DNA from: an uncultured Ktedonobacterales bacterium
GTDB lineage: Bacteria; Chloroflexota; Ktedonobacteria; Ktedonobacterales; DATBGS01
Reading direction: 5' to 3'
DNA length: 64,000 nt
Assembly (NCBI GenBank): GCA_964522745.1
Contig: CAZFWN010000007.1
Location: forward strand, 707-64,706
A program made the position numbers and the translations under genes. The notes under the pieces were generated by a model. It saw only the letters and a list, made by a program, of their open reading frames with translations. It searched no databases and was not told the DNA's origin. Shown one piece after another: positions 39,904 through 63,960 of the stretch. Position 1 is the stretch's first letter. Every line of letters starts with the position of its first letter.

Positions 39904-41364
39904 TCATCCCTCAGAAACTGGACGCGGCTGATAAAATTGCGCCAGGAATTTTCCGCCGGGCTTGGCATCATGCGGCCCGTTGCCGTTTATGGTATCGCCG
40001 GCCCATTCCATCGAAGTGGCCCAGCCCTGCACAGAAGAGCGCGGCCATTTCGGCTCATCATAGGACCAGAGGACGCCAACAAACCAGGGAGCAGCCTGAG
40101 GCGTAAACGCCTGGAGCAATGCTTTCATATCATTGCCCTGCTCTAGAATGTCTGGTGCGGTTTGATCGGTTGTGCTGGGAGCGTTATTGGAACCGGGTGC
40201 GCTCTCATAGCCGGCCTCAGTGAAGAGCAAGGGGTGCTTGTATTTCTGCACGACGGCATTCAGCCGCCCGATGATGTCACCCTGACCGGCCAGGTCGAGG
40301 TCATCTTGCTTGCCGTGCCAGGCGTCAATCAGAGTCTTGACCGGCGGGTCCGCCGCAGCTTTGGTGAGCGGGAAATAGCCGCTGACTCCGATGAAATCAA
40401 CGGCGTCCCACCAGGTAATATGCTCAAACTCAACGGGAGCGGCATCCACACTCCCCCAGGAGGCGCCATAGATCAGTTTTCCCTGATAGCCCCCTCCAGT
40501 CTGTTTCTGGCCCTGGTAGTCAGTATACGACTGGCTCTTGATGGCGTTGACCATATGCCGCCACTGACAATCCCGGCGGCCTTGACATTGGAGTTGCTCA
40601 CCTGGAGCGCCAGAGGCTCCATAGCTCCCCTTGCCAGTTGTATCAGTATCGGTAGTGATATTGACCAGATCATTGCCAAAAATGAAGTAAGGCAGATGAT
40701 GTTTTTGGGAGATTTGCGCGTAATGGACGGCAAACGCGGTATAACTATCGAACCATTGATGTTCTGTCTGACCAACCGAATTTCCCTGGATGGGTTTCTC
40801 GCCTGGAACCCCATACCAAAGGTTGCCAATAAAGCTTGAGGATGTGTAGATCGGATCGTTCGTAAGCTGGATTTTAAGCGCCAAGATGGGCGTTAGCCCG
40901 GCAGCCTGGGCGTCAGTAATCGCTTGCTCAATATCCTGATCTGGCAGCGAATTGCTATTTCCTGCATCGCTGGGATTATAGGAGACGGTGGTGCTGGTGG
41001 TGTTATTCTGGTCTGCGGTCACATCGATAGCGACCGCGTTCATGTGATAATCGGTGGCCTCAGAGTTCATGATATGCGCTGAATCTGGCTGGAGAAACTG
41101 GTGGTCGCCCCATTTGCGCAGCCAGAGGTCGTGAAAGCCCTGGAAGGCCAAAGGCGTGCCCGGCGAACCGACCTGCGCCTGAGCGCTGTGTGCCGGCAAA
41201 AAGAAGGTAGCGCCGGTGAGCCAGCCGGTTCCGAACACCAAGATGACCGCGAGCGAGATGAGGGCAATGGCGGCATTGACAAACCCGCTCAGCCGGCCAT
41301 GTGGCCGACTTGGGGGGGGTACTAAGTGTTGCGCTGTGGGAGAGGCGTTGGGCAGAATAGGCAT
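39904..41364 (-). CDS. Membrane-anchored clan GH-A-like TIM-barrel glycoside hydrolase, putative
   Basis: 486 aa with one N-terminal TM helix. 'YFIFGNDL' sits at the usual NE acid/base position but reads ND. 'PLLFTEAGYES' is nucleophile-like TExG. Confidence 0.45.
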   Translation of the reverse strand: MPILPNASPTAQHLVPPPSRPHGRLSGFVNAAIALISLAVILVFGTGWLTGATFFLPAHSAQAQVGSPGTPLAFQGFHDLWLRKWGDHQFLQPDSAHIMNSEATDYHMNAVAIDVTADQNNTTSTTVSYNPSDAGNSNSLPDQDIEQAITDAQAAGLTPILALKIQLTNDPIYTSSSFIGNLWYGVPGEKPIQGNSVGQTEHQWFDSYTAFAVHYAQISQKHHLPYFIFGNDLVNITTDTDTTGKGSYGASGAPGEQLQCQGRRDCQWRHMVNAIKSQSYTDYQGQKQTGGGYQGKLIYGASWGSVDAAPVEFEHITWWDAVDFIGVSGYFPLTKAAADPPVKTLIDAWHGKQDDLDLAGQGDIIGRLNAVVQKYKHPLLFTEAGYESAPGSNNAPSTTDQTAPDILEQGNDMKALLQAFTPQAAPWFVGVLWSYDEPKWPRSSVQGWATSMEWAGDTINGNGPHDAKPGGKFLAQFYQPRPVSEG

Positions 41365-41401
41365 CCAGTATAGTCCTCCACTCCTGGCTGATTACGGGAA
41401 C

Positions 41402-42433
41402 TCAGGCGCTGGCAATAAGCTTGCGATATTTTTCGGCTGACTCTTTCCAGGCTTCTTCGGAAAGGCCCAGATGTTCGCGCAGCGTATCCAGCGTGATCCC
41501 TTCCTGAAGCTGGCGCACAGCATAGGTGTCGCGGAGCAGTTGAAGCGTGACCCGCTTTTGGATGCGCGTTTTGCGCACCGCTCGCGCCAGAATATAGTTG
41601 AGATTGCGGTCAGTACAATCAAACACCCGCACCTGAGGTCGGTATTTATTGAGATAGCGTTGAAATGCCTCGGTAAAAGCAACTGGCAATACGAGCTGGC
41701 GGTGTTTGCGTTGTTTGATTTGATCGTTGAATTGAATGGTGACAGCCGGATGGGCCGGGTTGCTCAGGTCAAGATGGCTGAGCTGTAATGCCATGAGTTC
41801 TTCTTTTTTCAGACCAGCATACAGAACCAGCATGACCAAACACTGGCTCCGGCTATCGTCGGCAGCAGCCGCTTCCAGTTGAGCGATCTCTTCTTCATCT
41901 AACATCTCTGGCAGCGGAGGGAGCGGACGTGTCAGCATGATGCCGGCAGCCGGATTTTCAGCGATGATGCCTTCGCCTGCTAGCCAGCCAAAAAAGTTCT
42001 TCAGGAACGTTGCCCGGCGCGCCATCGTTTTAGGTGCCGGTTGATGCCCACGCTCCCAGCGCAAGTGCATCAGCCAGCGGGTGAGGTCGCCAGTAGCAAT
42101 GCGCCCGACAGGAGTGTTCCTTCCCAAATAGTCACTTAATAACCGCAGATCGGAGAGAAAGCAGGTCACAGTGTAGCGTGAGTGATTAGTGAGGCGCAAA
42201 TAATCTTGATAGGCTGGGGCGCATTCGACCAGACTGCTTTCGGCGGTTGGCGGTATGATCTCAACAGGCGGAGCCTGGACAATCTTTACCTCTGTCGAAA
42301 ACAGGCTTTGTTGTCCAATGATGGCACTGGCCTCGGCATGGTCTGTTGGCCGATGGTCTGTATCAGGAGAAGCGGCTGCTTTGTTTGTTTCATTCTCATC
42401 GGGTTGAGGGTTGGGGTAATCGCTGTTGGACAT
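41402..42433 (-). CDS. Tyrosine-recombinase (XerC/D, phage-integrase)-like protein with non-canonical catalytic motifs
   Basis: 343 aa. The N-terminal SAM-like domain shows in 'YQDYLRLTNHSRYTVTCFLSDLRLLSDYL'. The C-terminal domain has 'YAGLKKEEL', 'LQLLRDTYAV' and 'HLGLSEEAWKESAEKY'. Confidence 0.65.
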   Translation of the reverse strand: MSNSDYPNPQPDENETNKAAASPDTDHRPTDHAEASAIIGQQSLFSTEVKIVQAPPVEIIPPTAESSLVECAPAYQDYLRLTNHSRYTVTCFLSDLRLLSDYLGRNTPVGRIATGDLTRWLMHLRWERGHQPAPKTMARRATFLKNFFGWLAGEGIIAENPAAGIMLTRPLPPLPEMLDEEEIAQLEAAAADDSRSQCLVMLVLYAGLKKEELMALQLSHLDLSNPAHPAVTIQFNDQIKQRKHRQLVLPVAFTEAFQRYLNKYRPQVRVFDCTDRNLNYILARAVRKTRIQKRVTLQLLRDTYAVRQLQEGITLDTLREHLGLSEEAWKESAEKYRKLIASA

Positions 42434-42590
42434 GATGCTTTGTCTCCATCAATCCCTGGGCACCACACGAATCGGCGCGGTAATTTTTACCACGCCGATG
42501 TTCATTATAGCAGACTGCGCAATCAATCACGCGCTTTTGCAGGCAATGATAGGACCAGAAGGCTACTGGGAAGAACTGGTAATCCGGTTC

Positions 42591-43538
42591 TTAGGCGGCA
42601 GGCTGAAATCCATAGTAGCGCCAAATGAGGCTGGCCGCAGAGGAGTGCATGAAATCGAGGAGTTGCTGTGCCAGGGCTGGGTTGGGAGCATGGCTGACGA
42701 TGGCGCCAATCATCTGGATGGGAGGGTTAAATTTGGTAGGGATGGAAAGCACTGGTAACGCCTGGTTTCCGCGCTGCTTTTGCACTGCCAGGTAATTGGT
42801 GTGATAGGCAATGGTAAAGTCCCCCGCCGGGTTCGGCTGAGCAATGGCCTGAGTGGCAGCTACTCCATCGGAGTAATTGACAGTGAGATTGCCGTAGACA
42901 CGGGCTGAGTAGTGAACTCCAAAAGCCGGATCAAGGTTCATGCTTTCGAGTGTCCGCAGGATATGCAGGTTGAGGCCATCGGAAGCGGAGATACCGATAT
43001 AGCGATGGCCTGGCACAGCCAGGTCTTGCAATCTGGTGATCTTCCCTGGATTGGTTGCCGGCAAGATGACGCTCAGGTAATCGGTCGCCAGCACGGTGCC
43101 TACGCTGCGTGTGAAACCAAGGAATCGGGCATTCACCATCGTATCTCGATCATCGGTGATGAGTAGATCGGCATCGGTTGCCGTATTGGCTATATTTGCA
43201 GCTTGCTTAGCGTTGGAAAAATCAAAAACGTAAGGCACGTGAAGGTGGTGCGCTTTCATAAAAGCATTAACCAGAGGTGGCATGACAAACTGAAGGGTCG
43301 GAACGGAGAGGATAATCAGCCCTCCCTGGTTCGTAATTGATAGGGTGCTAGCGTTTCCCTGAGTACCTCCTGGCCCCCAAAGTGCCAGGCTGTTGCCCCC
43401 ACAGGCCGCGAAGATGAGCAGTGGCCCTAGTAAAATGGCGAGCTGCGTATATCTCCTTGTTTTGCCTCTAAGATGTCGCACCCAGCTCATATATGTGAGA
43501 GACTTTTCAGAGCCGAGGCTCGTATATTGTCTGTTCAT
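42591..43538 (-). CDS. Periplasmic-binding-protein type 2 (ModA-like fold) lipoprotein
   Basis: Lipobox 'LIFAAC'. The pattern 'LVNAFMKAH...VFDFSNAKQAANIANTATDADLLITDD' parallels ModA-type binders. No cognate ABC permease or ATPase is adjacent. Confidence 0.5.
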   Translation of the reverse strand: MNRQYTSLGSEKSLTYMSWVRHLRGKTRRYTQLAILLGPLLIFAACGGNSLALWGPGGTQGNASTLSITNQGGLIILSVPTLQFVMPPLVNAFMKAHHLHVPYVFDFSNAKQAANIANTATDADLLITDDRDTMVNARFLGFTRSVGTVLATDYLSVILPATNPGKITRLQDLAVPGHRYIGISASDGLNLHILRTLESMNLDPAFGVHYSARVYGNLTVNYSDGVAATQAIAQPNPAGDFTIAYHTNYLAVQKQRGNQALPVLSIPTKFNPPIQMIGAIVSHAPNPALAQQLLDFMHSSAASLIWRYYGFQPAA

Positions 43539-43609: not shown

Positions 43610-44917
43610 CTATGGCTTACGCGGAATATCGCGCGATGGTGGTGCGTATTCATTGGTGGGCACCATATTAGGACTCTGCGGTGCGATATACATGTTCCCA
43701 TAGATTAAGAAGGGTCGGCGAGACTCTTCACGGATTAACCCCATATCAAACATCATGCCTACGACCAGCAGTCCGAGAATGAGCAAGACCGTGTGTGGCA
43801 AGATGCCGCGCGCGCCCCATTTCAGACCTGATTGAATAGAACCCAGGTAGGTGCCAAACATCAAGAAACCGCTTAGTGTCAGTCCGGCCAGCGAGAGGTA
43901 TTTCCAGGGGTTCATCAAGCCGAGCTGCCCTAAGAAACCTAAATTTAGCCCTAGTAGATTTGGACTCCAGTGTGGGGGCAGGCAGAGCCAGCCGCCAAAA
44001 AAGAGCAGCAGAAGCATGAGAACAAAGGCTGCGCGAGCATTGCGTGCCCCGGCCTTTCTCATCTGCGCGGTGATATACACTGCGCTGAAGAAAAAGAGGG
44101 CGGTCAGCAGAAAGACCTGAATCAAAAAGAGCCAGGAGCGGTCACCGCCGCCCATAATGCGGAAGAAAGCGCTGTAAGAATGATCGCGGATCAGCGCGGC
44201 ATATTGCCAGCCAATAAAGGGTTGCAAGATCATCAGGCCAATGCCAAAGAGCAACCCCAGCGCGCCGACGAAATCCCAGAAAGCTTTATTCTCTAACGAG
44301 CGGGCGCGTAGAAACTTCCAGGCGCCAAAACCACCCATTGCGAACCCGGCGTAGGAGATATTCCCGACGGTGCGATGCAGATCAAGCACGATGTCAGTTG
44401 GATTGAACATAATCGATTGGAGACTATCTGGCGTCGTGGGAGTGAGCATATAGGAGGCCATAACATCAACCATAAATTGCTGCGACCAGCTCACGAACAT
44501 CAGCAAAAAACCAATCGAGATATGCAGGGCGCGGAAATCTTTCAAGGCGTCCCAGGTGTAATACCAGGTGTAGAGGTAAAGAACCCAGAGAACAAACGAT
44601 GCTGCCTCCATGACCATCGGCCAGAAGGCGATGCGCATAATGGTTCCCCAGAAGAGCGGCCAGAGCATCATCAACGCCAGGATGGACATGATGGCGATAA
44701 AGCTGCCTGGCGCAAAGAAGATTACCTGCGTTTTGGCGATGCCATGCGCGATCTTGTCCCAACGCTTATCGCCGGTAAAATAATAGACGCTCTCAGTGGC
44801 GACCGCGATAAAGTTGAGTCCCGTCAGTCCGGCAGCGATCAAGATATGCGAGATAAATATCATGGCGATCACCAACTGGCTGCCCCAGAAGGAGAAGATG
44901 CTATCTGCGAGAACCAT
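43610..44917 (-). CDS. Cytochrome bd subunit-I (CydA)-like membrane protein, paralogue B, no Q-loop
   Basis: 435 aa with about 9-10 TM helices. 'ISHILIAAG', 'VMEAASF', 'LHRTVGNISYAGF' and 'FFRIMGGG' align by eye with CydA ligand regions. GGAGG lies 6 nt before the ATG. Confidence 0.65.
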   Translation of the reverse strand: MVLADSIFSFWGSQLVIAMIFISHILIAAGLTGLNFIAVATESVYYFTGDKRWDKIAHGIAKTQVIFFAPGSFIAIMSILALMMLWPLFWGTIMRIAFWPMVMEAASFVLWVLYLYTWYYTWDALKDFRALHISIGFLLMFVSWSQQFMVDVMASYMLTPTTPDSLQSIMFNPTDIVLDLHRTVGNISYAGFAMGGFGAWKFLRARSLENKAFWDFVGALGLLFGIGLMILQPFIGWQYAALIRDHSYSAFFRIMGGGDRSWLFLIQVFLLTALFFFSAVYITAQMRKAGARNARAAFVLMLLLLFFGGWLCLPPHWSPNLLGLNLGFLGQLGLMNPWKYLSLAGLTLSGFLMFGTYLGSIQSGLKWGARGILPHTVLLILGLLVVGMMFDMGLIREESRRPFLIYGNMYIAPQSPNMVPTNEYAPPSRDIPRKP

Positions 44918-44937
44918 AGCTCACCTCCGTGATGTCT

Positions 44938-46158
44938 TTACTGGGTCGGAACGTTTTCGATGCGATAGATTGCCAGCAGCAGCAAAATAAAGATGCTGAA
45001 GGCAACGATGACGCCGGTTGCTAGGGCAACTGGGCGCCTGAAGATGTTCATCGATTTATGGCGGTCTACAAAGGGGAGCAGGATCAGGTAGGTGATAAAT
45101 ACACCAAAGATCACCGGCAAGAAGGGAATCATCCAGCCTGGCAGATATGGAAGCATCTGGTCTGCCGGCAACATGAACCATTCTGGCAGCGGTACAAAGG
45201 TCTGGGTAGCGGCGTTGGCCGGCGGGTCGAGCGTTGGATAGGCCGTGAATGTGAGTAACACCACGACCAGGAAACAAATAAAGGCGACCGTACCTTCACG
45301 GAAGGAATGTTGTGGGAAGAAATAGTCGGTGTCGTCAGGGAGTTCGCGCTTGTGCGTTTCGGGGCTGTTCACTTCCTCCTGGGCCTTGACATAGGAGGTA
45401 AATTCGTCACCCTCCATGGTGAGGGTATCAGCCATCTTCTCGCCCCGACGTTTGCGGTAATTCAGCCAGGAGCCATATTGGCCCTGCAAAACAACAAACA
45501 AAACATGGATAAAGATAAAGAGGAGCAGCAGCGCTGGCAATGCCCAGACGTGCAGTGCAAAAGTGTTCGTAAGTGAAGCTGGATTAATCCGGTCGCCACC
45601 CAGCCAGATTTCCTTAAACCAGAGACCGACGATGGGGGTCCAGCCCATGATATGCTCACCAACCATGAAGGTATAGAATCCCGTCTGGTCCATGCGCAAG
45701 CAGGCCCCGGTATAGGCAACGGCGGTCATCAGAATAAAGAGAAAGACGCCGAAAACCCAGGTTAATTCACGTGGCCGCTTGTAGGCGCTGGAAAAATAGG
45801 TGCGCGCCATATGGATGCCGACCAGGAAGACCAGCATATAAGCGGTCCAGAAATGGAAGCCGCGTATCCAGTTGCCAAAGAGGATCGTATAGTTGATAGC
45901 CTGGATACTATTGTAGGCATGCTCCCAATCGGGGATGTAGTGAAATAGCAGCATGATGCCGGTGACGATCTGGAGCACAGTCAGCAGTACAATCGCGCCG
46001 CCAAAGGTATAGAGCCAGCCAAAGCGCTTGGGCACCGGGTCAGAGAGCAGCCGGTTGAGAAACCAGCTCAGCGGATAGCGCTCATCAAGCCAGTCGTAGA
46101 TGAACCGGCCTGTCCGGCTAATGATATTTGGCCCCTCAGGGCGAAGCGTGGCGTGCAT
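44938..46158 (-). CDS. Cytochrome b (b6-type N-domain fused to a subunit-IV-like C-domain)
   Basis: 406 aa. 'GFHFWTAYMLVFLVGIHMAR' gives H-x13-H and 'LHVWALPALLLLFIFIHV' gives H-x14-H. The Qo motif is 'LPEWF'. GGAGGAG precedes the ATG. Confidence 0.9.
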   Translation of the reverse strand: MHATLRPEGPNIISRTGRFIYDWLDERYPLSWFLNRLLSDPVPKRFGWLYTFGGAIVLLTVLQIVTGIMLLFHYIPDWEHAYNSIQAINYTILFGNWIRGFHFWTAYMLVFLVGIHMARTYFSSAYKRPRELTWVFGVFLFILMTAVAYTGACLRMDQTGFYTFMVGEHIMGWTPIVGLWFKEIWLGGDRINPASLTNTFALHVWALPALLLLFIFIHVLFVVLQGQYGSWLNYRKRRGEKMADTLTMEGDEFTSYVKAQEEVNSPETHKRELPDDTDYFFPQHSFREGTVAFICFLVVVLLTFTAYPTLDPPANAATQTFVPLPEWFMLPADQMLPYLPGWMIPFLPVIFGVFITYLILLPFVDRHKSMNIFRRPVALATGVIVAFSIFILLLLAIYRIENVPTQ

Positions 46159-46221
46159 CAGTCTTCTCCTCCAGCATGGATGCGATACTCTGCTGCCTTC
46201 AGCGGGCGATGCTTAAGCGGC

Positions 46222-46698
46222 TCAGTCCAAAATATCGATATAGACATAGAGATCCCCATTGATGATCTTGTGTTGGAATTGGCGCAGCGCGTAGGGAGGT
46301 GGCCCGCCGATGACTCGGCCCAGCCGGTCATAGACACCGCCGTGGCAGGGGCATAGGTAGACCTGTTTATATGGCTGCCATTGAATAGGGCAGCCCATAT
46401 GTGTACAACCGTTGTAAAAGGTAAAGAGTTGGTTGCCCGTTTGAAGGACGAATACCCCGACTGGCCGCGTGGTCTGGAGCCCATCTCCAACAATAGGAAC
46501 GTTGACAGCGAATTCGGTTGGTTTATTTGGTGGAATTCCGGCTATTGGACCGACTCGAACCCAGCTCGTTGGCTGTGGGGCAAAAATGACCCCGATCAGA
46601 TAGCCGGCTACCGGTATTGCTACCAGCGCTGCCAGTGTGCCCTGGATAGCAGCATTGCCGGCGATGAAGAACTTACGCCGCGAGATTTTCTCTGCCAT
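46222..46698 (-). CDS. Rieske [2Fe-2S] subunit with a Tat signal
   Basis: The product starts 'MAEKISRRKFFIAG' from the ATG at 46698. The cluster boxes are 'CTHMGCP' and 'CPCHGGVY'. Confidence 0.9.
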   Translation of the reverse strand: MAEKISRRKFFIAGNAAIQGTLAALVAIPVAGYLIGVIFAPQPTSWVRVGPIAGIPPNKPTEFAVNVPIVGDGLQTTRPVGVFVLQTGNQLFTFYNGCTHMGCPIQWQPYKQVYLCPCHGGVYDRLGRVIGGPPPYALRQFQHKIINGDLYVYIDILD

Positions 46699-46758
46699 AA
46701 TGCCAACCCCTCTCTGAGTCCTGGTCTCTATCAGGTGACATGGAGCCACTCCATTCAG

Positions 46759-46995
46759 TTATTGATAAGGAATCTTGATAGCGATAAACATCGGGAGTAC
46801 CGAGGCCAGAATAATCAATACGGTCGTAATCCAGATAAAACTCATCAGCGAAAAGAGCGCATAGCGACGTTTGCGCCAGAGGCTGGGAAGCTGCGCAACC
46901 ATGACAACCAGGGGCACCAGAATAAAGACTGAGAGTAGAAAGATAACAAGCCCCCAGCCTATCCATGCCTCAAAATTTATTTGAACACCTGTCAT
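46759..46995 (-). CDS. 78-aa two-helix membrane protein (possible small subunit)
   Basis: It has two hydrophobic helices separated by 'WRKRR'. GAGGGAAAAG precedes the ATG. It is embedded between the bd-like and Rieske genes. Confidence 0.5.
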   Translation of the reverse strand: MTGVQINFEAWIGWGLVIFLLSVFILVPLVVMVAQLPSLWRKRRYALFSLMSFIWITTVLIILASVLPMFIAIKIPYQ

Positions 46996-47065
46996 GCTTT
47001 TCCCTCATTTCCAGGTCTGCTTTTCACTGATGAGCTATCTGCTCTTCTTCCTCATCGCCGCATAC

Positions 47066-48466
47066 TTATCTTGTTTGCTTAATAGGCAACTGTGGCAGCG
47101 GCATGGTGCCATTAATGACATTGGTTTGGGGATTGCTGTAGCGGATGCCGCCCATCACGATCATGATGAGTATCAGCACCACCGCCAGGCTCACCAGGGT
47201 CCATTGGGCTGCCGCGCCCATGTTGCCCCAGGTCCATCTGCGCTTCTCACGCCAGTAGATGAACAGCGTGAGCAGGGTAAAAACGACAAAACCAATCAGA
47301 CTGACGTACTTGGCGACCATTGAGCCAAGCACTGGAACGCTCTCCGGGATAATACCAAGCACGGTGAGTACGATGAGAGCGACTAGCCCCCAGGAGGTGT
47401 AGATGCGGATCATCTGCTCGTGCGAGGTCATCTGTCCTTCCCTGCGGCCCAGTCGCATCACCTGCTTGAGCGTACCCGCGCTGCGTAATTCTTCGGGGGC
47501 AAGCGGTCCACTGCCGGCGCCGACCCGCATGGCTGTCAGAGCGCGCGCCCCCTGGCGCTCGATAGCGGCGCGTCTGATGCTGAGCCACATATAGAGATCA
47601 GAGAGAACAAAGGTCAGGCCGACGAGCGCCATCTGAAGCAGCCAGGCCCAGGATTTATCGCCCAGCATCATGCGATAATAGGTGGTTGGATTGCCGGCCT
47701 GAATCCGCAAGACGTAGAAGTAACCAACAAGTGGCTGGAACATCTCAAAAACAATGCCCCAGAGAAAGCCAAAATGTGCTACCCAGTGGTAATAGGCCCG
47801 ATCCAGCGAACTGCCGCGCCGACGCTTGCGCCAGGCGCGCCAGCCACCCCAGCCGGCGAGTACGAATCCGGCATACGAAATATTGCCGATAATGCGGTGG
47901 AAGAGTTCTGGTCCCCAGGTAGCGTTAAAGGCGGCGCTCACGGCATCCCGGCCATTGGGCGTGAGCATATAGGAGGTCCATATGGTAATCAGGACAATAA
48001 AAGCCGTCTCTGCGAGAGCATAGACGTAAATCAACGATTGATGTAAGACGCGGTGCCCTTCACGTTTCGGCCAGAGATAGGCATAGGCGATGAGGGAGAG
48101 GGTCATAGTAATCCAGGAGCCGAAGATGGCGAGCAGCGGGGCAAAGAAAAGGCTCGCCATAATTGCCATCAGGCGTGGATAAAGACCGAACATCAGGACC
48201 AGTCCAAAAACTGCCAGAGTGGCCCCAAACGAATAAAGCTGGACCAGGAACCAGGCAAATGTTTTGGAGAACCGCTCCCAGGGTTTGCTTTGCTTGTGCG
48301 GGGCCACACTTCCACTGACCGCCAGAATAATCGCGGTGCCCATGATGAAGGCGACCACCAGGATATGGAACTGCATGACAATCCCGATGGTGTAGCCATT
48401 AGGGATGAATGGAAAGTGAATAGGGCCTGGCCCCAGGTTTGGACTAGGCATGATGGGTTGCTCCAC
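47066..48466 (-). CDS. Cytochrome bd subunit-I (CydA)-like membrane protein, paralogue A, no Q-loop
   Basis: 466 aa and Cys-free. 'QFHILVVAF', 'LFHRIIGNISYAGF' and 'YYRMMLG' align with paralogue B and with CydA. The start is GTG 48466 or ATG 48451. Confidence 0.65.
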   Translation of the reverse strand: MEQPIMPSPNLGPGPIHFPFIPNGYTIGIVMQFHILVVAFIMGTAIILAVSGSVAPHKQSKPWERFSKTFAWFLVQLYSFGATLAVFGLVLMFGLYPRLMAIMASLFFAPLLAIFGSWITMTLSLIAYAYLWPKREGHRVLHQSLIYVYALAETAFIVLITIWTSYMLTPNGRDAVSAAFNATWGPELFHRIIGNISYAGFVLAGWGGWRAWRKRRRGSSLDRAYYHWVAHFGFLWGIVFEMFQPLVGYFYVLRIQAGNPTTYYRMMLGDKSWAWLLQMALVGLTFVLSDLYMWLSIRRAAIERQGARALTAMRVGAGSGPLAPEELRSAGTLKQVMRLGRREGQMTSHEQMIRIYTSWGLVALIVLTVLGIIPESVPVLGSMVAKYVSLIGFVVFTLLTLFIYWREKRRWTWGNMGAAAQWTLVSLAVVLILIMIVMGGIRYSNPQTNVINGTMPLPQLPIKQTR

Positions 48467-48525: not shown

Positions 48526-49365
48526 TCAGCAGAAACGCTTGATTTTCCAGACGGTGCCCCCGATGCCGACGCTTGCCAATGCGACGAACGCAGCGGCAGT
48601 CAGACTATACAGCAGCGGATTCGCTGAGCCAGCCAAAAGCTGCCGGACCAGGGTGACGGTATGGCTCACCGGATTGACCAGCGAAAGAACGTGCATCCAG
48701 CCGGGCAGCAGGTTATCTGGTAGGAGCGCGTTGCTGCCAAACAGGAAGAGGAGAAAGAGGAACATCTCAATCAACATGAGCGCCTCAACACTTCCGGTCA
48801 GCAGGGCCACCAGATAGGACAGTCCGGCAAAGGCCAGGCTAAAGACGATGAGTATCCCTAGCACGCCGAGCAAGCTGGCGAATCCAGCCTGTACGGGGGT
48901 GTGCAGGAGCGCAAGCAGCGCCAGCAAGATGAGCGCCTGGAGCAGCGTGCGCGTGCTATCGGCCAGCGCCTTACCGAGCAAAATGGCGCTGCGGTGGATA
49001 GGGGCTGCCGCCAGGCGTTCGAGAAAGCCGGAGTCTCTATCCCCCAGCAGGCCAATTCCGGCGAACGACGAGCCAAACAGCGCGGCGATGACCAACATGC
49101 CAGGCGCGAAGAAGCTCAGTGACTGGCTGGCCGAAAGGCCGGGCGTCTGGTGGATGCTGGTAAAGAGTTGGCTCAAGAGCCAGAGTGTGACCGCCGGCAA
49201 GACTAACACCAGGGCCAGTACCAGCGGCAGCCGCAGCGTCTTCTGCCAGGCCCGGCAAAAGAGCCAGAACGTTTCTGACGCACAAGCTCTGATGCCCGTC
49301 TGGCCTTGCGTCGGGTGTTGCACTTGAGCTAGCTGGCCCTCTGAGAAGATGGCGAGTTGCCTCAT
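48526..49365 (-). CDS. ABC-2-type transporter permease
   Basis: 279 aa with six TM helices in the ABC-2 layout. A 4-nt overlap joins it to the upstream ATPase gene. Confidence 0.8.
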   Translation of the reverse strand: MRQLAIFSEGQLAQVQHPTQGQTGIRACASETFWLFCRAWQKTLRLPLVLALVLVLPAVTLWLLSQLFTSIHQTPGLSASQSLSFFAPGMLVIAALFGSSFAGIGLLGDRDSGFLERLAAAPIHRSAILLGKALADSTRTLLQALILLALLALLHTPVQAGFASLLGVLGILIVFSLAFAGLSYLVALLTGSVEALMLIEMFLFLLFLFGSNALLPDNLLPGWMHVLSLVNPVSHTVTLVRQLLAGSANPLLYSLTAAAFVALASVGIGGTVWKIKRFC

Positions 49366-50465
49366 ACCTGCCCTCCTTGCGCCCTCTGGTGTCGAAACGG
49401 AGATCGTTTCTGGCGGGCATCTCTCTCAGCAGCGGGATGTTGAGCAGCAAAAGCTGTACTGGCGCTGGCTAGCTGCGATCCGGTAGCGTGAAAAAAGACA
49501 TCTTCCAGCGTTGGATGGCTGAGTGTGAGCCGGCGCAGGTGCAGTCCGGCAGTTTCAAGCAGCCGCGCTAGATGCGGGATGGCCTCCGGCCCATCGGTCA
49601 CTTCCAAACTGAGTTGGCCCTCCGCCTGCCCACTAGAGACGGCCTGAACCAGCGGATGCTGTTGGAGCAGAAGGCGCGCTGGTGCTGCCTGGTCTGGCTC
49701 GCCAGTCTCGATAGTGACCATATCTCCCTGAATCTGTGCTTTCAGCGCGACAGGTGAACCCTCCAGGATGAGCTGCCCATGATTCATCAGTGCGATACGT
49801 CCGCAAGAGCGCTCGACCTCCTGCGTATCGTGACTGGAGGCAATGATGGTGAGTCCTGCTTGCTGAAGTTCCGCCAGATAGCCCCAGAGGGCGGCTTTGC
49901 CGGCGGTGTCAAGCCCGGTGGTTGGCTCATCCAGCAGCAGGAGATCGGGGTGATGGATCAGGCTGCAAGCCAGCGCCAGCCGCCGGCGCATGCCACCGGA
50001 GTAGTGCGCCACGCGCCGGTTGGCGTGTTCGGCCAGTCCGAGCAGTTCCAGCAAGACCTGGGTGCGCTGCCGCAGCGCAGTGCTGCGCAGGCCATGCAGC
50101 CGCCCGGCCAGCACGAGATTGCCGCGTCCAGTCAGATACTCATCTACACCGCTGCGCTGCGCGACGTAGCCAATGCGCCGGCGCGTGGTGATGTCCTCTC
50201 GTCGGATTGGGAGACCAAAGAGTTCGATAGTGCCCTGAGATGGAGCGAGCAGCCCCGCCAGCAGCCGCAGCAGGGTTGTCTTGCCCGCGCCGTTTGGCCC
50301 AAGAATACCCAGGCATTCCCCTGAAGCCACCTTCAAGCTGAACGTGTCCAATGCGCGAGTGCCATCTTGAAAGGTGACAGAGACGTCTTCCAACCGCGCG
50401 ATGCACTGGCTGACGTCGGTAGCTGTCTGCTGAAGGCCAGCCTGTGAGGGCTTACTTATAGCCAT
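49362..50465 (-). CDS. ABC transporter ATP-binding protein (DrrA-like, with a C-terminal extension)
   Basis: Walker A 'GPNGAGKTT', signature 'YSGGMRRRLALA', Walker B 'LLLLDEPTTGLD'. The ATG at 50465 (GAGGGA 4 nt upstream) overlaps the end of the preceding gene by 14 nt. Confidence 0.85.
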   Translation of the reverse strand: MAISKPSQAGLQQTATDVSQCIARLEDVSVTFQDGTRALDTFSLKVASGECLGILGPNGAGKTTLLRLLAGLLAPSQGTIELFGLPIRREDITTRRRIGYVAQRSGVDEYLTGRGNLVLAGRLHGLRSTALRQRTQVLLELLGLAEHANRRVAHYSGGMRRRLALACSLIHHPDLLLLDEPTTGLDTAGKAALWGYLAELQQAGLTIIASSHDTQEVERSCGRIALMNHGQLILEGSPVALKAQIQGDMVTIETGEPDQAAPARLLLQQHPLVQAVSSGQAEGQLSLEVTDGPEAIPHLARLLETAGLHLRRLTLSHPTLEDVFFHATGSQLASASTAFAAQHPAAERDARQKRSPFRHQRAQGGQV

Positions 50466-53184
50466 AACGTCCCTCGTGGAAATCGCCAGTGGTGCGCCAC
50501 TTCTCAATGACGCGGTCTAAAACCTCGCTGCTCACCTCGGCAACGCCCATCTGTCGGGCGTTGCCCTCTACTGACTGGATCACCTGGCCCTTCACGAAAT
50601 CGGGTACTTTTTCCATCCGCTGCTCGGCTTCAGTTGTCCAGTTCAGACGTGGTTCCTGGCGTTCGCGGATGTGTTCAGAAACTTCGCCCCAGAGGCCGTA
50701 TTTGACCTCCATCGCTTCAGGCGTAATCAGCCGGCCCAGGTTCTTCTTATAGGCTGTCCATTCGACGCGCCAGCGGGTGAGGTCACGGCAGAAATCTGGC
50801 ACCTCTTCGAGCCTCGCCAGTGCTTCCGGTGTCCACACAAAATCCAGTTGATAGGTTTTCTCGCTCGCCGGATGTCCGTAGCCCAGCTTTTTTCCCATCT
50901 GGGCGATAAATTCTGGCGTCACTTCATTCAGACCCTTGCGCTCGGCGATCTGGAGCGCTGCATTTTCGACAAGCTGACCAGCGCGCCCGGCGGAAGCCTT
51001 GCCGCTCGCTTCTGAGCGCTGAGCCAGAGATTCGATGTGTTCCCGCGCCGCTTCGCTTACCGCTGGCCGTTCTGCCGCCTCTGTCTGGGACTTCGACGTT
51101 TCTTCGTTGTGTGAAACCGGACAGGTTCCCTGGCTGATGTTGCTTGTGGCTCCATTGTGAGGAACTGGGCATACTCCATTGGCTGGGCTGGTACTGGTGT
51201 TTGGCTTTTTCTTGCTCTGGCGGTCCATTTTGGCCTGGATCATTGCCACCATTTCGCCCTTGGCGAGTTCAATCCCTGCTTCGGTGATTTCCAAGGTGAT
51301 GGTGCTGGCCTGAAGTTCCGCCGCATGACGGAGGATAATATCCTCAGTCATCTCGCGCATATAGCCATCAGGCACACGCTCCATGCGTTGTTTGGCTTCT
51401 GGTGTCCAGCGTATCTGCACAGTTTCCAATAAGCTCTGCTCGCTCGTGTCTGTGCTTTCCTCAGGCCGTTCTGCTGGTATTGGTGCTGCACTCTCAGGCT
51501 TGGGGGCGGCTTCAGTTGGCTGATGGAGTGGTGGCTGCTCTTGGGGCTGTGCTGTTGGAGCGTTGGCGTGCAGGGTACTCAAATCACCAATGGTTTCCTG
51601 GACAATGGGATTGGCAAAATCAACGGTGACGGCTGGAAGGCGCTGTACCCGCGCCATCTTTTCAATGCGTGCTTTGGCGCGGCGGCGCGCATAGGCATCG
51701 GTCATCGTCCAGAGCAACTTCTTGGCTTCTTCGGTCCATTTGACCTTCACGCCATCAAAGCTCGTCTCCTCGGAGAGCGCGCCTTCCTGCGTGGCAGTCT
51801 GCTCGATCAAGCGCTTATCAATCAAGGTGAAGCGAGCCGGCCCGGAGTGGCAGACCGGGCAAGCAACAGGTAATACGTTGCGCGCAGCATAGCCACATTC
51901 CCCGCAGATATAGGTCACATCTTGATCGGGCGACGTGGCGCGCTCTTCGATGGCGATGGTCCTGGCAGCCACGCCCATCGCGCGCGCTGCCGATTCTGGC
52001 AGAATATCGCGCACTGCGTCATCGACAATGCTATTGGTAATCACTGAGTGCCCGCGCTCCATAGCGTAGCGATGAATGGCGGTGCGGGCGATGCCACGCA
52101 CAAACACCGGCACTTTTTCCATGCGGGCGCTGGCCTCATGAGTCCAGGTGATGGTTGCTTCGGCGCGCATATCAATTTGGGGAACATAGGTGCTGCTGCA
52201 CAGCAGGATATTGCAGGAGACCTGGCGCAAGAGCGCGTGGCTGTTACTGCCGATATCCATGTCCTGATCGCTATGCACCCCGATGCGGCCCATGACCAGC
52301 AGCCAGGGGCGTTCGCGCCTGGTCCACTGCGCAATCTTGTCCCAGGCTTTGCCATCCATCAAGGTGACTTTGAGTTCGACGCCCTCTTCAGAGGCGATGC
52401 TCTTGGCGATCTGGAGATGGGATTCATAGATTTTTGCCAGGCCGGTATCAATGATCTCTTCATGGAGTTGTTCCTGCTCTTTGAAGCGGAACACTTTTGA
52501 GGCTTCTTGTGAGAGGACCGTCACAATGTTATTGAAGACTGAATAGTGCAGATAGGGATCATAGATGGCAATGGCTTCTACCGGGCGATTGAAGGCGCGT
52601 CCTAGCTCAAGCGCTATCTTCAAGCCGCCAAATGACTGGGGGCTGCCATCGATGGCGACGGCAATGCTGCCGTCGCGCTGCTCGTGCCAGGGGCGAGTAT
52701 CTTTCATCACCAGGGTATCGGTCCTGACGCGGCGGATGACCCGCTCGCAGACGCTGCCGATCTGGCTCTCTTTGACGGCGCCCATGCCCAGCGCGCCCAT
52801 GATGACCATGCTATACTGACTCGCTTCGATGTCTTTAACCAGTTCTTGCCAGTTTTGTCCATCAAAGGTTTTGTCCTGAAAAGGGATCGCAGCTATCTTG
52901 CAGCGCTCTTCCATCACGTCCAGATAGGAATCAGAAATCAGGCGCAGGCCGCGCGTGATCAGCGTATCGTGAATTTTGCGCTGGCGCTCCAACTCCTGCT
53001 CTTCCTGATATTCTTCAGGCAGGGTATATTCCATTTGCTTGAAGCGGTAATCGTGCATGCGCGCGGCATAGACATGGCTGCCAATCAGTTGAGAGCCGAA
53101 AGCGCGGGCAAATTCGATAGCTACATCAACAGCAGCATTGGAGTAATCAGAGTTATCAACGGGAACGTAGATGCTTTCAAACAT
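50452..53184 (-). CDS. Multidomain protein: 2 x universal stress protein (USP) domains + rubredoxin-like zinc ribbon + 5-6 PCP_red (BchB C-terminal-like) repeats
   Basis: The ATG at 53184 (AAGGAG upstream) gives 910 aa. 'MFESIYVPVDNSDYS' and 'IAVAIDGSPQS' are USP starts. 'CGECGY...CPVCH' is the knuckle pair. Repeats of the form WT(x)EA...(V/I)P(x)F(V/x)...: 'ITWTHEASARMEKVPVFVRG', 'VKWTEEAKKLL', 'IRWTPEAKQRMERVPDGYM', 'FVWTPEALARLEEVPDFCR', 'LNWTTEAEQRMEKVPDFVKG'. Confidence 0.75.
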   Translation of the reverse strand: MFESIYVPVDNSDYSNAAVDVAIEFARAFGSQLIGSHVYAARMHDYRFKQMEYTLPEEYQEEQELERQRKIHDTLITRGLRLISDSYLDVMEERCKIAAIPFQDKTFDGQNWQELVKDIEASQYSMVIMGALGMGAVKESQIGSVCERVIRRVRTDTLVMKDTRPWHEQRDGSIAVAIDGSPQSFGGLKIALELGRAFNRPVEAIAIYDPYLHYSVFNNIVTVLSQEASKVFRFKEQEQLHEEIIDTGLAKIYESHLQIAKSIASEEGVELKVTLMDGKAWDKIAQWTRRERPWLLVMGRIGVHSDQDMDIGSNSHALLRQVSCNILLCSSTYVPQIDMRAEATITWTHEASARMEKVPVFVRGIARTAIHRYAMERGHSVITNSIVDDAVRDILPESAARAMGVAARTIAIEERATSPDQDVTYICGECGYAARNVLPVACPVCHSGPARFTLIDKRLIEQTATQEGALSEETSFDGVKVKWTEEAKKLLWTMTDAYARRRAKARIEKMARVQRLPAVTVDFANPIVQETIGDLSTLHANAPTAQPQEQPPLHQPTEAAPKPESAAPIPAERPEESTDTSEQSLLETVQIRWTPEAKQRMERVPDGYMREMTEDIILRHAAELQASTITLEITEAGIELAKGEMVAMIQAKMDRQSKKKPNTSTSPANGVCPVPHNGATSNISQGTCPVSHNEETSKSQTEAAERPAVSEAAREHIESLAQRSEASGKASAGRAGQLVENAALQIAERKGLNEVTPEFIAQMGKKLGYGHPASEKTYQLDFVWTPEALARLEEVPDFCRDLTRWRVEWTAYKKNLGRLITPEAMEVKYGLWGEVSEHIRERQEPRLNWTTEAEQRMEKVPDFVKGQVIQSVEGNARQMGVAEVSSEVLDRVIEKWRTTGDFHEGRYGYK

Positions 53185-53197
53185 GGTGGCTCCTTGG

Positions 53198-53803
53198 TTA
53201 CATACCGAGACTATTATCCTGGGTTGGGAAGGATTGGAAGTTAAGTGTGAGGCTGCTGCTGCCTGCATGAATATCAAAGACTATTGAACAGGTGTATGGC
53301 TGGTTCGGTTGCAGTTGTGCTTGGAGAAAATTGGTCGTTTTTTGCCACGCTGAAAGCCGCGCGGTGGTCTGGGCATCGCTTTTGTAGCTCTTGTTCGCAG
53401 CAGTATCCTCAAGCTGGAGCATGTCGGCGGTAGGCTGTTGTGGGGTATTGGTCAGATTGGTGAAAGTGAAATCAATCACGATAAATTCACCGCGCGCCTT
53501 CACCAGATGCGATCCCAGACGGAGCGCCATCGTGGCATGGGCAGCATTGATCTTCCATTCGGTGTTGCCTACATCGAAGATTTGCCCAAATTTGTGAGGC
53601 GAGTCTTGCTGCTGTTGTAGCTGCATCATCTCGCCCAGGAAGGGGTCTCGCTGTGCTGCCTCCTTGCTGATTTGACACCCCATCAAGAGGCTGCCAAGCG
53701 CCAGCATCAGGAGGAGCAGCCCAGGCAGGCGAAAGCGTTGAACGAGATGCAAAGCGCGCTGCCGGCTGATGAGCCGCAGCACTGACTGTTGCTGTTCTTT
53801 CAT
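53198..53803 (-). CDS. DUF4352-like lipoprotein
   Basis: Lipobox 'LLMGC'. 'ARGEFIVIDFTFTNLTNTPQQ' and 'YTCSIVFDI' follow the Ig-like DUF4352 pattern. The stop lies 13 nt before the next gene's ATG. Confidence 0.6.
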   Translation of the reverse strand: MKEQQQSVLRLISRQRALHLVQRFRLPGLLLLMLALGSLLMGCQISKEAAQRDPFLGEMMQLQQQQDSPHKFGQIFDVGNTEWKINAAHATMALRLGSHLVKARGEFIVIDFTFTNLTNTPQQPTADMLQLEDTAANKSYKSDAQTTARLSAWQKTTNFLQAQLQPNQPYTCSIVFDIHAGSSSLTLNFQSFPTQDNSLGM

Positions 53804-63081: not shown

Positions 63082-63960
63082 TTAAACGTGGGCTTCTGAG
63101 CGGCGAAGCTCGATCTTTCCATTGCGTACTCTGACATCAAAGGGACGCTCATCGAAGGTGGCCGGGCCGCCGAGAACGCGGCCAGTCTCCATACAGAACT
63201 TGGAGCCATGCCAGGGGCAGACAATCACCTCACCCTCAAGCGTTCCCTCATCAAGTGGTCCACCAGCATGCGTGCAGATGGCTGTGATCGCAGCGATCTT
63301 TCCATCGTGGCGTACAAGAACAGCAGGAGCCTTCCCCACCATCACGCGGATGGGCGTATCGGGTTTCAGCGCAGCTTCATCCATCACTGCAATATACTCT
63401 TCGCTCGCTTCTAGCCAGGCAGCGTGGTTTACGCCGGTGCCCTGGCCGAAGACGAGTTCACCCCCCAGGTACGCTGCCAGCCAGAGCGTTCCATAGCCCA
63501 GCGTAGAGAAGAGGAATGCTGTCCCTCGCCGCTTGCGGCTGCGCAGAAGCAAAGAAGAGGTATAGAAGGTGAGGGAGGTGGCATTGAGCAGCCCGTGTAG
63601 CAGGCCGACGCGGCGCTCGCGCCCATAGGTCTCTTGCCAATCTGCCAGCCCGGTCAAGGCTGATGCCAGGGCGCCGGCCAGCCCAATGCCTAAGGTGATG
63701 TCGGCGCCGCGCTTGAGCGCCTTGTTGCGACTGACGCTCAGCAGGTCCAGAATGAATGAAGCGCTCCAGGCGCCAACAGGGAGATCGGTTAAGGCCGGGT
63801 GCAGGGGATGGCCGAGCCAGGTGCCATGCAGTATATCTTTCAGAGTTCGGCTCGGCCCTTCGCGTTTCATCACTTTGCCGATGGCCTGCTGTAGCGCGTC
63901 GCCGGTTGGCTCTAACCACTGCTGCTGGTCGATTGTATCTTCCAAGAAGGCATGTGCCAT
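63082..63960 (-). CDS. DUF2231-like membrane domain fused to a Rieske [2Fe-2S] domain
   Basis: 'HGTWLGHPLHPALTDLPVG' (DUF2231-like) is followed by four TM helices. The C-terminal 'CTHAGGPL...CPWHGSKF' is Rieske. Confidence 0.75.
   Translation of the reverse strand: MAHAFLEDTIDQQQWLEPTGDALQQAIGKVMKREGPSRTLKDILHGTWLGHPLHPALTDLPVGAWSASFILDLLSVSRNKALKRGADITLGIGLAGALASALTGLADWQETYGRERRVGLLHGLLNATSLTFYTSSLLLRSRKRRGTAFLFSTLGYGTLWLAAYLGGELVFGQGTGVNHAAWLEASEEYIAVMDEAALKPDTPIRVMVGKAPAVLVRHDGKIAAITAICTHAGGPLDEGTLEGEVIVCPWHGSKFCMETGRVLGGPATFDERPFDVRVRNGKIELRRSEAHV

Follow-up and report, generated by a model that had tools for sequence, protein, structure and literature searches.

A Ktedonobacterales member of the OR-N5a/5b and petA/petB/petD class, with two predicted CydA-fold paralogues encoded around a Rieske/cytochrome b module

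A 64-kb stretch of the genome of an uncultured Ktedonobacterales bacterium (assembly GCA_964522745.1, contig CAZFWN010000007.1, positions 707 to 64,706; hereafter the window, on which all coordinates are given) carries five co-directional minus-strand genes at 43610-48466, in which a Rieske/cytochrome b gene set is placed between two genes for proteins resembling subunit I (CydA) of cytochrome bd. Read in the direction of transcription, these are bdA (47066-48466, 466 aa), a gene for a small two-helix protein (46759-46995, 78 aa), a Rieske protein gene (46222-46749, 175 aa), a cytochrome b gene (44938-46158, 406 aa) and bdB (43610-44917, 435 aa). The locus is a Ktedonobacterales member of a published class in which an OR-N5a/OR-N5b pair of bd-like proteins is encoded together with petA/petB/petD. 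It is fairly probable that the products assemble into a single membrane complex for menaquinol oxidation and O2 reduction in which no c-type cytochrome takes part; that the subunits associate, the route of the electrons and the use of O2 as acceptor are what we infer. An earlier reading of the DNA letters alone (the original prediction) had given the same gene order, and its coordinates were confirmed, with intergenic gaps of 70, 57, 63 and 20 nt. The gap of 57 nt presupposes Met17 (46701, 159 aa) as the first residue of the Rieske protein; this start, and Met6 (48451) for bdA, are favoured because of the N-termini of the homologues.

The original prediction took the arrangement to be undescribed. 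Both the arrangement and the same hypothesis had been published in 2021 (Murali et al., 2021; Yu et al., 2021). Murali, Gennis and Hemp (bioRxiv 10.1101/2021.01.16.426971) divide the bd superfamily into qOR, OR-C and OR-N, and describe an OR-N5a/OR-N5b pair occurring with petA/petB/petD, for which quinol was proposed as the donor. Their references for OR-N5a/OR-N5b are the pair of Rubrobacter xylanophilus WP_143528031.1/WP_143528035.1 and the Chloroflexi pair TMC48000.1/TMC47996.1; the accessions in each pair differ by four, which points to three genes between the paralogues. The OR-N5a protein of R. xylanophilus is listed with ten transmembrane helices (TM) and the residues H24, E104, E111, W118, H132, Q146, H183 and E406, and the residue table has "-" at Met393 for OR-N5a. 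OR-N5b is listed with H34, V86, L89, A115, T122 and H202 (Murali et al., 2021). At the published N5a numbering bdB has H24, I76, E104, W118, H132 and Q146, and at the N5b numbering bdA has H34, V86, L89 and T122, and this match makes bdB the putative N5a and bdA the putative N5b member. The pair also shares the further characters of OR-N5a/5b, i.e., no quinol site, no CXXCH motif, about ten TM, and a channel glutamate in the "a" protein and none in the "b" protein.

By profile comparison and structure modelling, bdA and bdB are CydA-fold paralogues. Both score above the gathering cutoff (26.2 bits) of Cyt_bd_oxida_I (PF01654, model length 418), bdA with 35.0 bits and bdB with 65.6 bits, and in both the match covers only model positions ~3-237. 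A profile of bdB homologues matched Geobacillus CydA with E=3.6e-17. In profile-profile alignments (hhalign) to E. coli CydA, taken from the K-12 genome sequence, bdB aligned with 95% probability, pairing H24 with His19, E104 with Glu99 and H181 with His186, and bdA aligned with 70% probability, pairing H34 with His19 and H190 with His186 and placing F115 at Glu99. The matches to His19 and His186 that the original prediction had drawn by eye in both proteins were thereby reproduced, and so was its claim that only the second paralogue keeps an acidic residue at the Glu99 position. The bdA and bdB families aligned with each other over their full length with 100% probability. The bdA sequence by itself found no match in a PDB search, and profile and fold searches were needed. 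AlphaFold models of the two proteins have ten TM each (bdB: pLDDT 85.1, pTM 0.87; bdA: pLDDT 85.5, pTM 0.86), and in Foldseek searches of the PDB the ten best matches of both models were CydA chains, followed by CydB chains, with template modelling scores to CydA of 0.50-0.62 for bdB and 0.40-0.51 for bdA.

The quinol-binding Q-loop of CydA is absent, as had been claimed. In the AlphaFold models the segment between TM6 and TM7, where it would lie, comprises about 30 residues including two short helices, which is longer than the 15-25 residues first estimated, and the alignment of bdB to E. coli CydA stops at the Q-loop. None of the five operon proteins contains CXXCH, the mark of the haem-c-fused bd-like OR-C proteins, and bdA is without any cysteine. 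Neither a CydB nor a canonical CydA was found anywhere in the window (tblastn for CydB, best E=3.2), and Pfam detected no CydB within the operon. Apart from that of a canonical CydA, these absences had been noted in the original prediction.

Residue conservation was counted over 48 homologues of bdB (N5a-type) and 41 of bdA (N5b-type). The His19 equivalents H24 and H34 are invariant in the respective sets, and so are the His186 equivalents H181 and H190, each with its following arginine (R182, R191). The invariant positions of the N5a type are H24, E42, H181-R182, R396 and R400. Besides these histidines the key residues of bdB are E104, H132 and E397. The first is kept in all N5a members linked to pet genes, and E397 is found in 35 of the 48 sequences, among them every pet-linked one. 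It lies in the motif IREESRRPF, which resembles AEYGRQPW around Glu445 of CydA at the motif level, the alignment itself being non-significant. In bdA, H34, H190-R191 and M267 are kept, the acidic positions are all lost in the Ktedonobacterales N5b proteins (G52, F115, Y443), and Thr122 stands at the Glu107 position. Near-invariant methionines are M255 and M335 in bdB, and M267 and M383 in bdA. The residue pattern fits bdB as the putative catalytic subunit. As judged from the same pattern, bdA may be a non-catalytic partner in the place of CydB that could still hold haem; a structural or purely electron-relaying role is suggested because both histidines are kept and every acidic channel or ligand residue is lost. 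The Ktedonobacterales bdA proteins also carry a lineage-specific insertion of about 50-60 aa between TM7 and TM8 (residues ~300-350 of bdA) that is absent from the Dormibacterota homologues; it is charged, predicted to be helical and presumably cytoplasmic.

Of the Pfam models proposed in the original prediction for checking the gene set, Cyt_bd_oxida_I, Rieske and Cytochrome_B matched. The Rieske protein (38.5 bits) has one TM, the predicted twin-arginine translocation (Tat) signal SRRKFF and the cluster-binding motifs CTHMGC and CPCHGG, all of them as first read, and its closest solved relatives are the Rieske proteins of b6f complexes. Cytochrome b (118 bits) has the two expected histidine pairs, H102/H116 (x13) and H203/H218 (x14), and the Qo motif PEWF at 325-328; its best match in the PDB is cytochrome b6 (2zt9_A, E=7e-37). 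It consists of a b6-type N-terminal half (NCBIfam b6/ExtP) fused to a subunit-IV-like C-terminal half. The latter part of the original description holds only weakly, the match to TIGR01156 (24.6 bits, E=1.8e-5) being below the cutoff. A threonine occupies the position of Cys35 of cytochrome b6 (LYTFGG here, FYCLGG in b6), and a haem cn would for this reason not be expected. The 78-aa protein has two TM and neither histidine nor cysteine. In close relatives it is 73-81% identical, comparable to the products of the neighbouring genes, and a counterpart of the same size, topology and position is present in 11 of the 15 syntenic loci described below. In distant loci the small open reading frame (ORF) overlaps both neighbours by 4 nt at start and stop, and on the metagenome contig L082 it was independently annotated by the Joint Genome Institute (JGI) as a gene for a 97-aa protein. 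Its sequence and conservation suggest that it is likely a small structural subunit.

The survey of gene neighbourhoods that had been proposed for the locus was done with one genome per species and covered 80 loci (given L numbers here), mapped by tblastn and iterated hidden Markov models. The order N5b, small ORF, Rieske, cytochrome b, N5a was found in 15 loci, down to 27% identity, bearing out the expectation that it would be conserved. The hosts are Ktedonobacterales (81% identity), other Chloroflexota, Dormibacterota and two metagenome-assembled genomes (MAGs) named "Myxococcales", and the same order occurs on L082, a contig of 1 Mb. Stop/start overlaps of 4 nt between successive operon genes are found in the syntenic loci. 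In a neighbour-joining tree the upstream paralogues were grouped together (72% bootstrap) and so were the downstream ones (98%); two paralogue clades, each fixed in its position in the operon, point to one old duplication. None of the five operon ORFs of the window is disrupted, and many related MAGs have counterparts with 73-86% identity. For the bd-like proteins the close relatives are all from uncultured Ktedonobacterales MAGs and go by the generic name "cytochrome ubiquinol oxidase subunit I", and there was no Rubrobacter-named protein among the top 120 matches of the family-profile search. That the genes are decaying, or stand together by chance without a function, is effectively refuted by this conservation, to which the invariant ligand residues and the confidence of both structure models can be added.

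Elsewhere in the survey the bd-like genes occur in other settings. About 20 loci have a lone bd-like gene, and in Gammaproteobacteria loci the bd-like genes are longer. The Nitrospira loci (L060-L079) have a bd-like gene, a gap of ~1.4 kb, the Rieske and cytochrome b genes, a gap of ~1.2 kb and a second bd-like gene, which is presumably the published OR-N1/pet arrangement. Genes for class I cytochromes c lie just upstream and downstream of these Nitrospira loci.

In the complex that we consider probable, quinol would be oxidised at the Qo site (PEWF) of the b6-type cytochrome b. One electron would pass over haems bL and bH to the Qi site in the manner of a Q-cycle, and the other to the [2Fe-2S] head of the Rieske protein. 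Rather than on cytochrome c1 or f, the head would dock on the periplasmic face of the bd-like heterodimer, where loss of the Q-loop would leave the His186-ligated low-spin haem exposed to it. From there the electron would move on to a high-spin haem pair in bdB (His24, Glu104, Glu397), at which O2 would be reduced with protons taken from the cytoplasm. The N5b protein bdA would stand in for CydB, as a structural subunit or an electron relay only, and the 78-aa hairpin would be a small subunit of the complex. From the established energetics of cytochrome bd and the Q-cycle, charge translocation is estimated at about 2 per electron.

Several observations weigh against this proposal, and the first of them concern the electron carrier. 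According to one alternative, the Rieske/cytochrome b module and the bd-like pair are two separate enzymes linked by a carrier encoded elsewhere, and the clustering of their genes reflects co-regulation only. The carrier could be a cytochrome of the c type or a blue-copper protein, for instance auracyanin. The 15 syntenic loci were screened for CXXCH proteins conserved between loci, and only the two "Myxococcales" loci (L005 and L006, GC 0.70) encode a cytochrome c in the operon. In L005 it is a 162-aa lipoprotein of the class I monohaem type (9296-9784, plus strand; CAVCHG ... MPMPGF), and its ATG has 4 nt in common with the end of the N5a gene, stop codon included, so that the two are translationally coupled; in L006 the cytochrome c gene (~9780-10222, plus strand) likewise follows the N5a gene. 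The protein matches PF13442 with 36 bits and PF00034 with 31 bits. The original prediction had named a cytochrome c encoded in the homologous operon of relatives as evidence that would speak against it, and this was found in these two loci. In the other 13 of the 15, all from Chloroflexota and Dormibacterota, there is none within about 8 kb, nor is there on L082 or in the window. For at least one lineage a c-type link is thus indicated, and this lends some weight to a carrier-mediated model. Used as a query, the "Myxococcales" protein finds a cytochrome c beside the bd-like genes in most of the non-pet OR-N loci and in Nitrospira, and finds none in the 13 loci or the window; for this reason the absence from these pet-linked loci is taken to be real and lineage-specific. 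The "Myxococcales" operons have in addition a second cytochrome c gene upstream, on the opposite strand.

Two separate enzymes would also be in keeping with the cytochrome c genes that adjoin the bd-like gene in most other OR-N loci, with the fused haem c domains of the sister family OR-C (Murali et al., 2021) and with the use of auracyanin by Chloroflexota. Moreover, our view of the genome is that of the 64-kb window, in which no plausible c-type cytochrome was found (best E 0.045 with the L005-type query), and a carrier may be encoded elsewhere. Against such a split stand the fixed gene order and the overlaps of 4 nt, which are typical of the subunits of one complex, and the position of the bd-like genes, which lie on either side of those for the Rieske protein and cytochrome b instead of forming a block of their own. 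Taken together with the 13 syntenic loci, L082 and the window, this makes a separate carrier unlikely.

The second set of observations weighing against the single complex concerns its acceptor and its class. The assignment to OR-N5a/5b was made by residue signature and pet operon. No OR-N structure was among the fold matches in the PDB (to April 2026). In bdB Trp111 replaces the second channel glutamate (Glu107 of E. coli, E111 of the Rubrobacter N5a protein), and all Ktedonobacterales N5a proteins have Trp or Tyr at this position, with Glu in those of Dormibacterota. The motifs FFRIM and YYRMM, which the original prediction had equated with the Met393 region of CydA, were never paired with it by profile methods, and no profile alignment pairs any of the near-invariant methionines of bdA or bdB with Met393. 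Alignment of the penultimate and last helices with TM7-8 of CydA scored 12.0/10.8 and that of the FFRIM hairpin 5.5/4.0, all of them non-significant. As there is no significant alignment, and the published table lists no equivalent either (Murali et al., 2021), the first equation is rejected as unproven, and no residue is here assigned as sixth ligand of the b558-type entry haem. Furthermore, according to a survey of Nitrospirales, the affinity for oxygen of the OR-N oxidases "still remains unknown" (ISME J, 2025). In other OR-N classes the equivalent of position 111 is Glu, but Tyr stands at the Glu99 position.

These points bear on the possibility that the bd-like pair is not an O2 reductase at all, and instead relays electrons to NO, H2O2 or a periplasmic partner, or serves reverse flow into the quinone pool. 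The OR-N family is not known to have a characterised member (ISME J, 2025), and the bd-like proteins of Nitrospira and anammox bacteria cluster with NXR-type anchors and were proposed to be electron-transfer anchors or routes for reverse flow. On the other hand, the equivalents of His19 and Glu99, and the putative one of Glu445 (E-x-x-R-x-P-[FW]), are kept in N5a proteins across the pet-linked clade, conservation is highest in the core of four helices to which the active-site haems bind (Murali et al., 2021), and no gene for a partner enzyme is conserved in the cluster. An acceptor other than O2 therefore appears quite unlikely, and reduction of O2 by the N5a protein remains the reading that we prefer.

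The locus can be compared with several known systems. Similarly to the published OR-N5a/b loci, it has two Q-loop-less CydA paralogues with three genes between them, which include those for the Rieske protein and cytochrome b/subunit IV. It differs from them by Trp in place of E111, by an N5b protein that lacks the Glu445 equivalent (Tyr443) and carries the cytoplasmic insertion, and by the fusion of petB and petD. The text of Murali et al. (2021) is silent on the two-TM subunit, and on the Usp-PCP_red protein and ABC-2 exporter encoded upstream (see below). TO_4 of Ca. Manganitrophus noduliformans, which consists of two clade-V bd-like proteins and a canonical Complex III, was transcribed at the 67th percentile and was proposed to carry out quinol-linked O2 reduction (Yu et al., 2021; bioRxiv 10.1101/2021.11.15.468770). 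By its description it is alike in encoding two bd-like proteins together with Rieske/cytochrome b, but its host belongs to Nitrospirota and its genomic context is rich in c-type cytochromes. In Nitrospirales, OR-N5 genes were found downstream of Alternative Complex III (ISME J, 2025).

A heterodimer of two CydA paralogues in place of CydAB is also known from CydAA' (qOR4a/qOR4b) of Caldivirga maquilingensis, which is an active O2 reductase with b haems only and has a degenerate second paralogue. However, CydAA' has eight TM and its own quinol site, oxidises quinol directly and has no Rieske/cytochrome b partner. With canonical CydAB[X] the window pair shares the fold of subunit I, His19 and His186 and, in bdB, Glu99 and a motif resembling that around Glu445. 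It differs in having no Q-loop or quinol site, no CydB or CydX, and ten instead of nine TM; its C-terminal half is not recognisably homologous by Pfam and a Met393 equivalent is not identifiable in it. The actinobacterial bcc-aa3 supercomplex and the b6f/bc complexes share the Q-cycle module, which in bcc-aa3 is hard-wired to an oxidase without a soluble carrier, and the window cytochrome b is of the b6 type, with 13/14 histidine spacing and the split-type architecture, albeit fused. These complexes always hold a c-type cytochrome (c1, f or a dihaem cc), and the oxidase of bcc-aa3 is a haem-copper enzyme, whereas the window complex would have no haem c and lacks the cysteine for haem cn.

Three further minus-strand genes are linked to the operon on its upstream side. 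An ABC-2 permease (48526-49365) and a DrrA-like ABC ATPase (49362-50507), both assigned by Pfam and NCBIfam, are co-directional with bdA and lie 59-74 nt upstream of it, and they are followed by a gene for a 941-aa protein, predicted to be cytoplasmic, with Usp and PCP_red domains (50452-53277; Pfam, NCBIfam, PDB). The ABC pair is operon-linked in L002, L004, L007-L015, L017, L044 and L082; it is upstream in Ktedonobacterales and in L004, and downstream, after a response regulator, in loci of the Dormibacterota/Chloroflexia type. A role of the exporter in the export of a cofactor, by analogy with CcmAB or CydDC, would be only a guess.

The Usp-PCP_red protein has two Usp domains, four PCP_red repeats and a CxxC...CxxC motif of the zinc-ribbon or rubredoxin-like kind. 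PCP_red is the C-terminal, tetrapyrrole-capping domain of subunit B of protochlorophyllide reductase. CPVCH in this protein was considered as a haem c site and rejected, being one half of the cytoplasmic CxxC...CxxC zinc ribbon; in L082 the region is labelled by JGI as a rubredoxin-like domain. In each of the 14 syntenic loci whose flanking sequence reaches far enough, a homologue is the immediate upstream neighbour of the operon, and lone bd-like genes are adjoined by one in about 20 further loci of several phyla. Altogether it stands beside OR-N-type genes, with or without Rieske/cytochrome b, in about 36 of the 80 loci (the window, L001-L006, L008, L009, L011-L015, L017, L019, L020, L022, L024, L025, L029, L030, L032-L034, L036, L039, L042, L045, L047, L051, L053, L055, L063, L077 and L082). 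In L008, L011, L012 and L017 the gene runs 4 nt into the first bd-like (N5b) gene, with overlapping stop and start. L082 has one packed run of genes for the Usp/PCP_red/rubredoxin-like protein, a bd-like protein, the 97-aa protein, the Rieske protein, cytochrome b, the second bd-like protein, a 143-aa protein, a response regulator, an ABC ATPase and an ABC-2 permease (JGI annotation).

The Usp-PCP_red protein and the ABC-2 exporter are parts of the same conserved cluster, and probably have a regulatory function or one in the handling of a cofactor. Usp proteins encoded next to respiratory operons of Nitrospira marina increase at low O2, and this suggests a regulatory role for the Usp-PCP_red protein; such a role, and binding of a tetrapyrrole by its PCP_red domains, is speculation. 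It is doubtful that the functional unit extends beyond the published set of bd-like and pet genes, with the two as obligate partners of OR-N oxidases across phyla. In such a unit they would deliver or sense haem, or exert control according to energy state or O2, and haem b of the degenerate N5b protein would replace cytochrome c1/f in accepting electrons from the Rieske head; a Q-cycle module would then be wired, without cytochrome c, to an oxidase that has a cofactor-handling system of its own. No mention of a link between Usp-PCP_red proteins and OR-N oxidases was found in the accessible parts of the literature on these oxidases.

On the downstream side there are three co-directional minus-strand genes (39904-43538), the products of which are a solute-binding protein of the ModA-like kind (SBP_bac_11), a tyrosine recombinase of the XerC/D type and a glycoside hydrolase of family GH113. 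Related Ktedonobacterales MAGs (L001, L002) share this synteny, and the recombinase is for this reason not regarded as the boundary of a mobile element. A mobile element or a chance juxtaposition is likewise ruled out by the synteny of the flanking genes in related MAGs. A scan of 42.4-53.6 kb for promoters and terminators was uninformative, as it gave no more matches than expected from shuffled sequence. Another Rieske [2Fe-2S] domain is encoded at a distance of about 15 kb (63082-63960, minus strand), in a 292-aa protein in which it is fused to a DUF2231 membrane domain; the sequence of this protein is unrelated to the operon Rieske protein except in the region of the cluster-binding motifs.

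Since the arrangement has been published and the organism is uncultured, the window does not by itself open the question of this class of oxidases. It adds the conserved small subunit, the linked Usp-PCP_red/ABC-2 module, the lineage-specific presence and absence of cytochrome c, and the loss of the second channel glutamate in Ktedonobacterales; the first three of these can help in choosing constructs and organisms. Most worth following are the linked Usp-PCP_red/ABC-2 module and the way in which cytochrome c was lost or gained in different lineages. OR-N-type oxidases are widespread (388 were counted in 24,706 genomes in a survey of 2021), and nitrite oxidisers, as well as other bacteria of environmental importance, are considered to depend on them as their main terminal oxidases. 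The pet-linked N5 pair offers the simplest system for testing whether a Rieske/cytochrome b module can feed an oxidase with no cytochrome c in between. If the proposed complex is real, the Rieske head would directly reduce a b-type haem of a bd-fold protein, and the yield of about 2 charges per electron, itself an estimate, would lie between that of cytochrome bd alone and that of bc1 plus aa3.

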